From NCBI GenBank assembly GCA_012514175.1, contig JAAZAU010000009.1, positions 32,283-96,282 on the forward strand: a stretch of 64,000 nt of DNA, in the 5' to 3' direction. Positions 13,646 through 15,139 of this stretch are shown in pieces. A model generated the notes under the pieces. It did not search any database and was not told the origin of the DNA. It saw only the letters and a list, made by a program, of their open reading frames with translations. This DNA is from Parcubacteria group bacterium. GTDB taxonomy: Bacteria > Patescibacteriota > Minisyncoccia > Phycocordibacterales > WO2-35-19. A program made the position numbers and the translations under genes. Numbering within the stretch: the first letter of the stretch is position 1; every line of letters starts with the position of its first letter.

Positions 13646-15139
13646 ATGGAGAGTGAAAAATATACTTTAACTAAGGCACAAGAAGAAGCAGAGAAACTCA
13701 AGCAAAAAATTGATTCTGGTGAAGCTTCAAATTATGATGATGCGGAAAAATTAACTGAACGAGAATTATCTGCTAAAGAAGAAATAATCGGGCTACTTAA
13801 AGAGGGTCGTGTTAGGGATGCCACCCAAATCATTAACAAATTTCATATTCCCGAAGAAACAATCCAAAGTCCAGAGGTTCAATCAGTCGCCGAAGAAGCA
13901 ATGATTAGTCTGCTTAAAAATGGTGCTGTTGGTAATGCCACCCAAATCATTTACAAATTTCATATTCCCGAAGAAACAATCCAAAGTCCAGAGGTTCAAT
14001 CAGCTGCCAAAGAAAGAATGATCGGGCTACTTAAAGAGGGTCGTGTTAGGGATGCCACCCAAATCATTAACAAATTTCATATTCCCGAAGAAACAATCCA
14101 AAGTCCAGAGGTTCAATCAGCTGCTAAAGAAAGAATGATCAATTGGCTTAAAGAGGGTTGTTTTGTTAATCACGTCATCGAAATCATTGACAAATTTCAT
14201 ATTCCTGAAGAAACAATTCAAAGCTCAGAAGTTCAATCAGCTGCCAAAGAAAGAATGATCTATCCGCTTAAAGAGGGTTATGTTGATGATGCCATCAAAA
14301 TCATTGAAAAATTTCACATTCCCGAAGAAACAATCCAAAGCTCAGAAGTTCAATCAGCTGCCAAAGAAAGAATGATCAGGTTGCTTGGATGGGGTTTTAC
14401 TGATGATGCCATCCAAATCATTGACGAATTTCACATTCCTGAAGAAGCGGTTCAACTGGTCGCTGAAGAAGGAATGATCTATTTGCTTAAAGAGGGTTCC
14501 ATTGATAACGCTATTCAAATCATTGACAAATTTCATATTCCTGAAGAAACAATCCAAAACCCAGAAGTTCAATCAGCCGCTGAAGAAGCAATGATCTATT
14601 CGCTTAAAGAGGGTTATGTTGATGATGCCATCAAAATTATTGACAGATTTCACATTCCTGAAGAAGCGGTTCAATCAGCTGCTAAAGAAGAAATAATCAG
14701 GTTACTTGAAGAGGGTTGTGTTTGGGATGCCATCCAAATCATTGACGAATTTCACATTCCTGAAGAAGCGGTTCAACTGGTCGCTGAAGAAGGAATGATC
14801 TATTTGCTTAAAGAGGGTTCCATTGATAACGCTATTCAAATTATTGACAGATTTCATATTCCCGAAGAAACAATCCAAAGCTCAGAAGTTCAATCAGCTG
14901 CCAAAGAAAGAATGATCAGGTTGCTTGGATGGGGTTATACTGATGATGCCATCCAAATCATTGACAAATTTCATATCTCTGAAGGAATAGCTCAATTGGT
15001 TGACCGACAAGAAGAAATTAAGGAATTACTTAAAGAACACAACACAGAAGTCCTAATAAAAACAATAGAGGCGGGGTTTACAATAGAAGAAATCACAAGA
15101 TTTCCATTCCTTATTTCTCCATTAGTCACGAAGAAATAG
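13646..15139 (+). CDS. Tandem-repeat protein (~12 x 39-aa near-identical helical repeats) with the same C-terminal tail as the upstream gene
   Basis: Repeat unit KFHIPEETIQSPEVQSAAKERMIGLLKEGRVRDATQIIN recurs with 117-bp DNA periodicity. The protein ends in ...KTIEAGFTIEEITRFPFLISPLVTKK. Confidence 0.8.
   Translation: MESEKYTLTKAQEEAEKLKQKIDSGEASNYDDAEKLTERELSAKEEIIGLLKEGRVRDATQIINKFHIPEETIQSPEVQSVAEEAMISLLKNGAVGNATQIIYKFHIPEETIQSPEVQSAAKERMIGLLKEGRVRDATQIINKFHIPEETIQSPEVQSAAKERMINWLKEGCFVNHVIEIIDKFHIPEETIQSSEVQSAAKERMIYPLKEGYVDDAIKIIEKFHIPEETIQSSEVQSAAKERMIRLLGWGFTDDAIQIIDEFHIPEEAVQLVAEEGMIYLLKEGSIDNAIQIIDKFHIPEETIQNPEVQSAAEEAMIYSLKEGYVDDAIKIIDRFHIPEEAVQSAAKEEIIRLLEEGCVWDAIQIIDEFHIPEEAVQLVAEEGMIYLLKEGSIDNAIQIIDRFHIPEETIQSSEVQSAAKERMIRLLGWGYTDDAIQIIDKFHISEGIAQLVDRQEEIKELLKEHNTEVLIKTIEAGFTIEEITRFPFLISPLVTKK
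13830..14990 (+). repeat. Coding tandem repeat array, period 117 bp, ~10-12 copies, high nucleotide identity
   Basis: The motif caaatttcatattcccgaagaaacaatccaaag..gttcaatcagc recurs at 117-bp spacing (e.g. 13848, 13965, 14082, 14199...). Confidence 0.8.
15059..15139 (+). repeat. 81-bp direct repeat, copy 2
   Basis: Identical to 13501-13581. Confidence 0.85.

Follow-up and report, generated by a model that had tools for sequence, protein, structure and literature searches.

Bacteria of the Candidate Phyla Radiation (CPR; Patescibacteria) rely on other cells, and to our knowledge few of the proteins through which they interact are understood. Here we describe a repeat protein gene, open reading frame (ORF) 2, at positions 13646-15139 of a 64,000-nucleotide stretch of a Parcubacteria group genome (contig JAAZAU010000009.1; hereafter the window). 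ORF2 encodes a tandem array of helical repeats in which amino acid change is concentrated on one predicted surface and in which the number of units differs between near-identical strains. Its C-terminal tail is the same as that of the preceding gene, ORF1, and both lie upstream of genes for a MoxR-class AAA+ ATPase and a VWA-domain protein. The best reading of these observations, which is partly inferred and to which we give roughly an even chance, is that ORF2 is a recombination-diversified protein-binding module plugged into an AAA+/VWA machine. The gene is composed as follows.

13646-15139, + strand: ORF2, 497 aa, with leader, repeat array and shared C-terminal tail (ORF list and translation; family hidden Markov model, HMM)
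13646-13759, + strand: N-terminal leader, aa 1-38, beginning MESEKYTLTKAQEEAEKLKQKIDSGEASNYDDAEKL; it also heads the family proteins P0002, P0034, P0048 and P0151
13760-13837, + strand: partial first unit, aa 39-64, comprising only helix A, turn and helix B (unit alignment; HMM unit 1 covers model positions 19-43)
13838-14425, + strand: units U1-U5, long form, of 39, 39, 40, 39 and 39 aa (unit parsing, codon alignment)
14426-14965, + strand: units U6-U10, of 34, 39, 34, 34 and 39 aa, including a 321-nt higher-order repeat (Tandem Repeats Finder, TRF; unit parsing; repeat comparison)
14966-15058, + strand: degenerate last unit, aa 441-471, KFHISEGIAQLVDRQEEIKELLKEHNTEVLI (unit alignment; helical in the structure model)
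15059-15139, + strand: 26-aa tail common to ORF1 and ORF2, KTIEAGFTIEEITRFPFLISPLVTKK, with the stop codon (98-nt direct repeat with the 3' end of ORF1)

A first-pass annotation made from the sequence letters had placed about 12 near-identical 117-bp repeats inside this gene. TRF confirmed an array there, at 13770-14984 and wholly within the single ORF, with periods of 117, 102, 219 and 321 nt (scores 380-994), the longest corresponding to three units. Cutting the protein at FHIPEE gave 10 full units of 34-40 aa: six of 39 residues, one of 40 and three of 34, the short form being without TIQSP. Along the protein, long (L) and short (S) units follow the order LLLLLSLSSL. As a count, about 12 is fair because the family profile also counts 12 units (E = 2.5e-159), but the units are not all 117 bp. 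Their similarity had been overstated: DNA identity between unit pairs is 69-99%, mostly 75-86%, and only U6/U9 (99%) and U5/U10 (97%) are near-identical. At the amino acid level the mean identity between units is 0.71.

In a codon alignment of the ORF2 units, three to six different amino acids occur at columns 21, 24, 25, 27, 28, 31-34, 37, 40 and 1. About ten columns form the core of this set (21, 24, 25, 27, 28, 31-34, 37), columns 40 and 1 being variable as well, and the remaining columns mostly hold codons that are invariant or differ only synonymously. Substitutions are thus concentrated, as had been noted at first pass, and the positions named then are among the variable ones, but they occupy about ten columns rather than roughly five. 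Rates of nonsynonymous (dN) and synonymous (dS) change between units were estimated by the Nei-Gojobori method, with the variable columns taken from other family members and not from ORF2 itself. At the variable columns dN was 0.563 and dS 0.390 (dN/dS 1.44); at the scaffold columns dN was 0.075 and dS 0.389 (dN/dS 0.19). The four Trp residues of the array and all but one of its eight Tyr residues sit at family-variable columns (24, 25, 28, 31 and 33); the remaining Tyr is at column 40. Such placement is more typical of a protein-binding surface than of a TALE/PPR-type code.

These patterns bear on the possibility that the array is a structural spacer or scaffold, in which the number of units matters and the residues of an exposed surface drift neutrally. 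Unit number is polymorphic between strains, long and short units are mixed across the family, and the variable residues are exposed and so less constrained. There is also a precedent in the middle repeat region of Helicobacter pylori CagY, described in PMC2581425 as alpha-helical modules whose number is altered by in-frame recombination. CagY is a surface component of a secretion system, and we found no sequence or gene-context relation of ORF2 to it. Drift sits poorly, however, with a dN/dS above 1 at variable columns whose dS equals that of the scaffold, with the many variable codons that differ at two or three bases beside identical adjacent codons, with the enrichment of Trp, Tyr and Arg at variable columns, and with the variation of distant family members at identical columns. 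We regard a pure spacer as distinctly unlikely.

AlphaFold2 (AF2), run on the single ORF2 sequence, predicts a regular all-alpha hairpin solenoid (mean predicted local distance difference test, pLDDT, 82.7; predicted template modelling score, pTM, 0.57), in agreement with the alpha-solenoid suggested at first pass. In the model each unit comprises a 17-residue helix A (columns 12-28), a Gly-containing turn (columns 29-31) and a 10-residue helix B (columns 32-40 plus column 1), and long units carry an additional one-turn helix, 'EETI'. We compared an entropy-weighted helical-wheel vector, which marks the most variable side of a helix, with the hydrophobic moment. The two directions lie 125 degrees apart on helix A and 145 degrees apart on helix B, and the variable residues therefore point away from the core. 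Amino acid change in ORF2 is concentrated at about ten solvent-facing positions, which occupy the last part of helix A, the turn and the first part of helix B; the variable stripe runs from columns 17, 21, 24 and 28 over turn column 31 to columns 33, 37 and 40 of helix B. The protein is strongly acidic (pI 4.6, net charge -46), and its leader is hydrophilic, with no signal peptide seen by inspection. A cytoplasmic, strongly acidic alpha-alpha-hairpin solenoid is the best explanation of the predicted product, with an evenly balanced likelihood when taken jointly with the tail docking and diversified binding proposed below.

Foldseek comparison of the model with the PDB returned generic solenoids only (designed repeats, dPPR, TPR and HEAT-like; E ~1e-4, TM-scores 0.1-0.26), and PDB sequence searches with ORF2 and with the family member P0016 gave no meaningful match. 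Pfam and PDB searches found no known repeat family of defined function to which the units belong. Because the variable positions face outward, the unit number varies (see below) and no known family is matched, the proposal of a hypervariable solenoid stands.

The same annotation had likened the variation to a residue code of the kind used by TAL (transcription activator-like) effectors or PPR proteins, which would make ORF2 a modular nucleic-acid reader, each repeat specifying one base through a few code residues. The 34/39-residue units do form predicted helical hairpins, designed PPR proteins are among the top Foldseek matches, and ORF2 scores 23.7 bits against Pfam PPR_1 (PF12854; cut-off 23.8) and 20.5 against TIGR00756 (cut-off 20). 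PPR and TPR repeats share with the array a two-helix unit, of 34-35 residues, and a comparable spacing of the motif (G....A..hh..h.hP[DE]). However, the PPR scores arise by adding up many identical weak matches, none of them a significant stretch by itself, PPR structures give TM-scores of 0.16-0.24, and six other family members match neither TPR models nor, at E <= 0.001, PPR models. PHROG and NCBIfam matches to ORF2 were disregarded, as summed repeated weak matches with no significant stretch. Each 39-residue unit also contains a further short helix, the surface is acidic, the number of variable positions per unit is about ten rather than two or three, and columns 19 and 6, which in our own motif alignment are equivalent to PPR code positions 5 and 35, hold K/E and an invariant E, so that they vary little or not at all. 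TAL effector repeats are units of 33-35 residues that differ essentially only at two repeat-variable residues, positions 12 and 13. In contrast, ORF2 has about ten variable columns and two unit lengths, matches no TAL model in Pfam or NCBIfam and is acidic rather than basic. We consider a nucleic-acid code extremely unlikely, and this part of the first-pass annotation is not upheld.

Contigs of the same species, retrieved from anaerobic-digester and biogas metagenomes by exact look-up of the 118-aa protein encoded next to ORF2, match the window at 99.5-99.7% identity outside the array, with synteny kept, and an unbroken ORF2 is present in no fewer than 10 independent assemblies of the species. 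Repeat number nevertheless differs between these strains, 10 units versus 11. ORF2 has 11 full units and a length of 536 aa in every contig with a complete array (L054-L056 and L060-L063, representing four or more independent samples), and the window ORF2 equals that of L060 at all 1494 bases except for one clean 117-nt gap, the length of one unit, placed as follows.

14781-14835, + strand: placement range of the 117-nt indel relative to the 536-aa allele, a 55-nt identical stretch (alignment to L060)

The window-type U8-U9-U10 junction was found again in contig L069; two or more assemblies show each unit-number state, and neither state disrupts the frame. Seven substitutions within a span of 49 nt separate contigs L061 and L063 from L060 and L062, and the extra unit of L061 and L063 opens with 36 nt identical to those with which U10 begins, a gene-conversion patch. 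The units of ORF2 change by in-frame unequal recombination and gene conversion. The rapid expansion and contraction, or concerted evolution, that had been suggested from the window is supported by the unit difference and the conversion patch, with homogenisation being only partial.

Two further sets of contigs were not used as allele evidence. In L013 (ERZ2847836, coverage 2.6) a unit switch is followed by unrelated DNA, and in L057/L064 (ERZ2648087, coverage 1.2) U6 and U5 alternate three times and many frameshifts lie downstream. These aberrant arrays are probably assembly errors at repeats, and could hide real alleles. A target of a diversity-generating retroelement would be accompanied by a nearby reverse transcriptase, a template/variable repeat pair and adenine-specific differences. 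We rejected this mechanism: no reverse transcriptase domain occurs among the genes at 10828-23874, differences among the variable codons involve all four bases, and no single copy stands out as the template.

Judged from sequence comparison, the ORF2 repeat defines a large and hitherto unannotated family, mainly in Parcubacteria. The family emerged only from an exhaustive phmmer search, which recovered 381 cluster representatives at E <= 1e-3 and 56 at E <= 1e-30; a word-indexed protein search gave only 15 matches, mostly through the tail, and peptide patterns from ORF2 matched no relatives in genome and metagenome collections. From about 500 units of about 150 proteins we built a unit profile, with the consensus FNLSEEFLNSPEVQEAAKEGFIKCLSKGDIDDALKIKEK. 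Family proteins are mostly 900-1900 aa long and begin with an array of 34/39-residue units, followed by large C-terminal domains of several kinds, with CCMPFG, DACWA or SPCCI motifs. Both unit forms occur together in 38 of the 40 family proteins with at least five units, as they do in ORF2, and loop insertions of up to 12 residues cluster after the turn glycine across the family. Within-protein entropy peaks at the columns that vary in ORF2 (Spearman 0.62, p = 1e-5; 29 proteins with at least six full units). With an internal unit identity of 0.71, ORF2 ranks fourth of 57 family proteins, for which the median is 0.39. The family has neither a Pfam model (ORF2 and six other members scanned) nor a solved relative (PDB searches), its proteins are annotated at source as 'hypothetical', with named ones from Candidatus Yonathbacteria and Candidatus Falkowbacteria, and our literature searches found no description of the repeat family or of the gene cassette discussed below.

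Across the proteins P0016-P0060, the C-terminal Cys motifs (CCMPFG, DACWA, SPCCI) are accompanied by a common 'DNIE' motif, and some proteins have a GNAT-like end. These domains may constitute one uncharacterised enzyme superfamily.

ORF2 departs from the architecture of its relatives at one end. Its leader is that of P0002, P0034, P0048 and P0151, which also possess large C-terminal domains, but where the complete family members that we examined continue from the repeats into a large domain, ORF2 has the tail of ORF1. No other ORF of the window matches the family profile. Two large family members lie in ordinary chromosomal contexts with no AAA+/VWA genes near, and the genomic context of P0003 is unrelated. 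The genes that accompany ORF2 are these.

10828-13581, + strand: ORF1, 917 aa, with a conserved N-terminal region, a variable helical-repeat region and the tail KTIEAGFTIEEITRFPFLISPLVTKK at 13501-13578
15175-15531, + strand: conserved cassette protein of 118 aa with no family match
15536-17500, + strand: MoxR-class AAA+ ATPase, AAA_5 domain at aa 352-482 (Pfam AAA_5, E = 5.9e-15)
17520-21611, + strand: 1363-aa protein with a C-terminal VWA domain at aa 1192-1325 (Pfam VWA, E = 2.7e-6)
21604-22092, + strand: 162-aa LRV_2-domain protein, the last cassette gene, whose position is kept in related loci (Pfam LRV_2, E = 5.8e-8)

The tail-coding DNA of ORF1 and ORF2 forms a direct repeat of 98 nt with an overall identity of 94%. 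The six mismatches are confined to its first 27 nt, before the tail coding sequence or where that sequence begins; beyond them the two copies match exactly. Among 12 ORF1 homologues the last 23 residues are invariant, while elsewhere these proteins are 37-49% identical. The cassette of tail protein, ~117-aa protein, AAA_5 ATPase, VWA protein and LRV_2 protein was found in about 45 loci, the named contigs being from Zambryskibacteria, Paceibacteria and 'Parcubacteria group'. Wherever a locus includes upstream DNA, exactly one gene with the tail precedes the AAA_5 gene, and in the most distant locus, L049, the tail is divergent but recognisably related. A second tail-bearing gene, ORF2, occurs only in the window species, and only there are family repeats and tail joined, among some 45 cassettes and some 165 family proteins. 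By its sequence, ORF2 is a chimera of the leader and repeats of the family with an ORF1-type tail. A role of the tail as sorting signal or membrane anchor was rejected on inspection, as the hydrophobic stretch is just nine residues and there is no N-terminal signal peptide.

The chimeric structure invites the explanation that ORF2 is a recent and functionless by-product of recombination, or partly an artefact of assembly, in which a fragment of a family gene became fused to a duplicated ORF1 3' end. Such an origin would account for an architecture unique to one species; in addition, the exact look-up of the window allele returned no product on record, six long contigs terminate inside the array, and one low-coverage contig is chimeric at it. 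Against a functionless product stand a frame that is open in every complete assembly, across different samples and assemblers, an indel of exactly one unit, a scaffold dN/dS of 0.19 between units and an AF2 model that is confident from a single sequence. Taking both sides together, we think this very unlikely.

A further alternative grants ORF2 a function but gives little weight to its repeats. If ORF2 were a tail-bearing decoy or regulator, it would compete with ORF1 for the tail-docking site, and the repeats would matter little for specificity. The tails of the two proteins are identical, ORF2 has neither the N-terminal region of ORF1 nor the usual C-terminal domain of the family, and it lies between ORF1 and the remainder of the cassette, with no terminator-like site found between ORF1, ORF2 and the 118-aa gene. 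A simple competitor, however, would need no 10-11 units with scaffold constraint and raised change on one surface, and we rate a decoy, like the spacer, as quite improbable.

We favour instead a diversified binding module. The variable ridge of the array would be a protein- or peptide-binding surface undergoing diversification, and the common tail would dock ORF2 onto the AAA+/VWA machine that ORF1 uses. If the ridge binds proteins or peptides and the tail docks to the machine, ORF2 would be an alternative, rapidly re-tunable subunit for target recognition, or for presenting targets, possibly in host or phage interactions of an epibiont-type bacterium. A broader version of this proposal is that some Parcubacteria possess a programmable recognition system, in which a conserved MoxR-AAA+/VWA remodelling machine takes interchangeable client-binding subunits through a universal 26-residue tail, with ORF2 as a captured diversified repeat binder for host or phage proteins, akin in function to NOD-like receptors (NLRs) or variable lymphocyte receptors. 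We hold this broader version to be rather unlikely.

Several points weigh against the module as proposed. Docking through the tail is proposed from conservation and gene order. PADLOC defence models match the cassette nowhere save for a weak ZorA-like coiled-coil match in the VWA protein, and ORF1 carries neither a VMAP nor any other Pfam domain. The dN/dS values between units are built on non-independent pairs, and recombination can inflate such ratios. A dS of 0.39 between most units is substantial synonymous divergence, so homogenisation of the units is only partial. The difference between 10 and 11 units comes from short-read assemblies, in which an assembler could collapse a unit. Exposure was judged by helical periodicity and the secondary structure of the model rather than by coordinates, and at a pTM of 0.57 the superhelical geometry of the model is uncertain.

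Among known systems, the closest evolutionary analogue for the behaviour of the array is the highly internally conserved repeats of NLR/STAND proteins. The TPR, ANK and WD repeats of fungal (and bacterial) members are highly conserved internally, are under positive selection, vary in number and evolve in concert (Dyrka et al. 2014, PMC4986451). As in ORF2, a conserved solenoid scaffold bears a few surface positions that are apparently under selection, and units are exchanged and vary in number. ORF2 has no NACHT, NB-ARC or other NTPase domain, the adjacent ATPase being of the MoxR AAA_5 class, and by Pfam its repeats are not TPR, ANK or WD. Its mean unit identity is 71%, whereas the criterion of that study is 85%, which only some ORF2 pairs exceed. 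The variable patch is centred on the hairpin turn in ORF2 but on the concave helix face in NLRs, and the hosts of NLR/STAND proteins are multicellular whereas that of ORF2 is a CPR bacterium with a small genome.

For the proposed machine, two kinds of system are conceptual precedents: the MoxR-vWA ternary conflict systems and the NorQ/NorD and CbbQ/CbbO pairs. In the ternary systems, which are reported mainly from multicellular bacteria and not from CPR, a third protein with a variable all-alpha VMAP-M region is the proposed sensor (Kaur, Burroughs, Iyer, Aravind 2020, PMC7159879). The window likewise has adjacent MoxR AAA+ (15536-17500) and VWA (17520-21611) genes, and ORF1 and its homologues have a variable helical-repeat middle, between conserved N- and C-terminal ends. 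In contrast to those systems, no effector-type domain was detected in the VWA protein here, and the partner is marked by the 26-residue tail. ORF1 matches no Pfam family, VMAP included, and ORF2 has only weak, sub-threshold, non-VMAP matches, in a copy of Pfam whose VMAP models are unconfirmed; membership of the VMAP class is unsupported because neither protein matches a VMAP family in Pfam.

The ATPase has its closest solved relatives in NorQ (PDB, 8.6e-9) and CbbQ (1.7e-6). In the NorQ/NorD and CbbQ/CbbO pairs, the VWA partner connects the ATPase ring to a specific client protein (PMC9976466 and PMC4660213). The ATPase of the window differs in a 340-residue N-terminal extension, its VWA partner is 1200-1360 aa long, and repeat proteins that bear a common tail are its presumed clients or adaptors, with no metal-enzyme or Rubisco gene near. 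The VWA protein also matches the PHROG family named cobalamin biosynthesis protein (5.6e-10), which on our reading would be CobT-like.

A repeat family that had lacked annotation, although it counts hundreds of cluster representatives, is now defined and its diversifying residues located, and gain or loss of a unit is documented between strains that are 99.5-99.7% identical. One member of the family is tied by a strikingly invariant tail to a conserved AAA+/VWA cassette that is found in differing genomic contexts of Parcubacteria. The tail provides a concrete handle on docking, and the array is a natural scaffold with defined variable positions.

The cassette itself may have moved between genomes. 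Its flanking genes are not syntenic, its ATPases are about 80% identical across loci and its ORF1 homologues about 58%, its GC content is 0.39-0.41 against 0.32-0.35 in the flanks, and IS110 or helix-turn-helix genes lie near some loci. The non-syntenic contexts, the similarity of the ATPases, the raised GC and the neighbouring IS110 and helix-turn-helix genes therefore suggest horizontal mobility.

Other features of the cassette vary between loci. The region before the tail in ORF1 (window 12400-13500, aa ~560-890) and its homologues P0004-P0015 consists of variable helical repeats, the type of which depends on lineage: 20 of the 44 proteins have 31-residue 'NLEKFSGI...' units, and ORF1 and P0004 are among those with other types. 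Homology of these 31-residue repeats to the 34/39-residue family was unsupported, with a profile-profile probability of 0.9%, which for such short profiles is weak evidence. ORF1 homologues range from 746 to 987 aa, and the ORF1 model was poor (pLDDT 64), with no significant fold match. VWA proteins fall at about 1190-1200 aa or at 1356-1367 aa in a comparison of the window with loci L002, L005, L011 and L012, and in the same-species contig L055 the VWA gene is split into ORFs of 287 and 1062 aa.

Two observations concern the remainder of the window. A 512-aa ORF at 22336-23874 has an isopentenyl-diphosphate isomerase (NUDIX) domain at aa ~345-504 only, its N-terminal ~340 residues being without a family match. 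The 23S rRNA gene at 58719-62519, within which no ORF of at least 100 aa is found, spans 3801 nt compared with 2925 nt for the model, which implies one or more insertions totalling about 880 nt. Insertions in rRNA genes are known in CPR bacteria.

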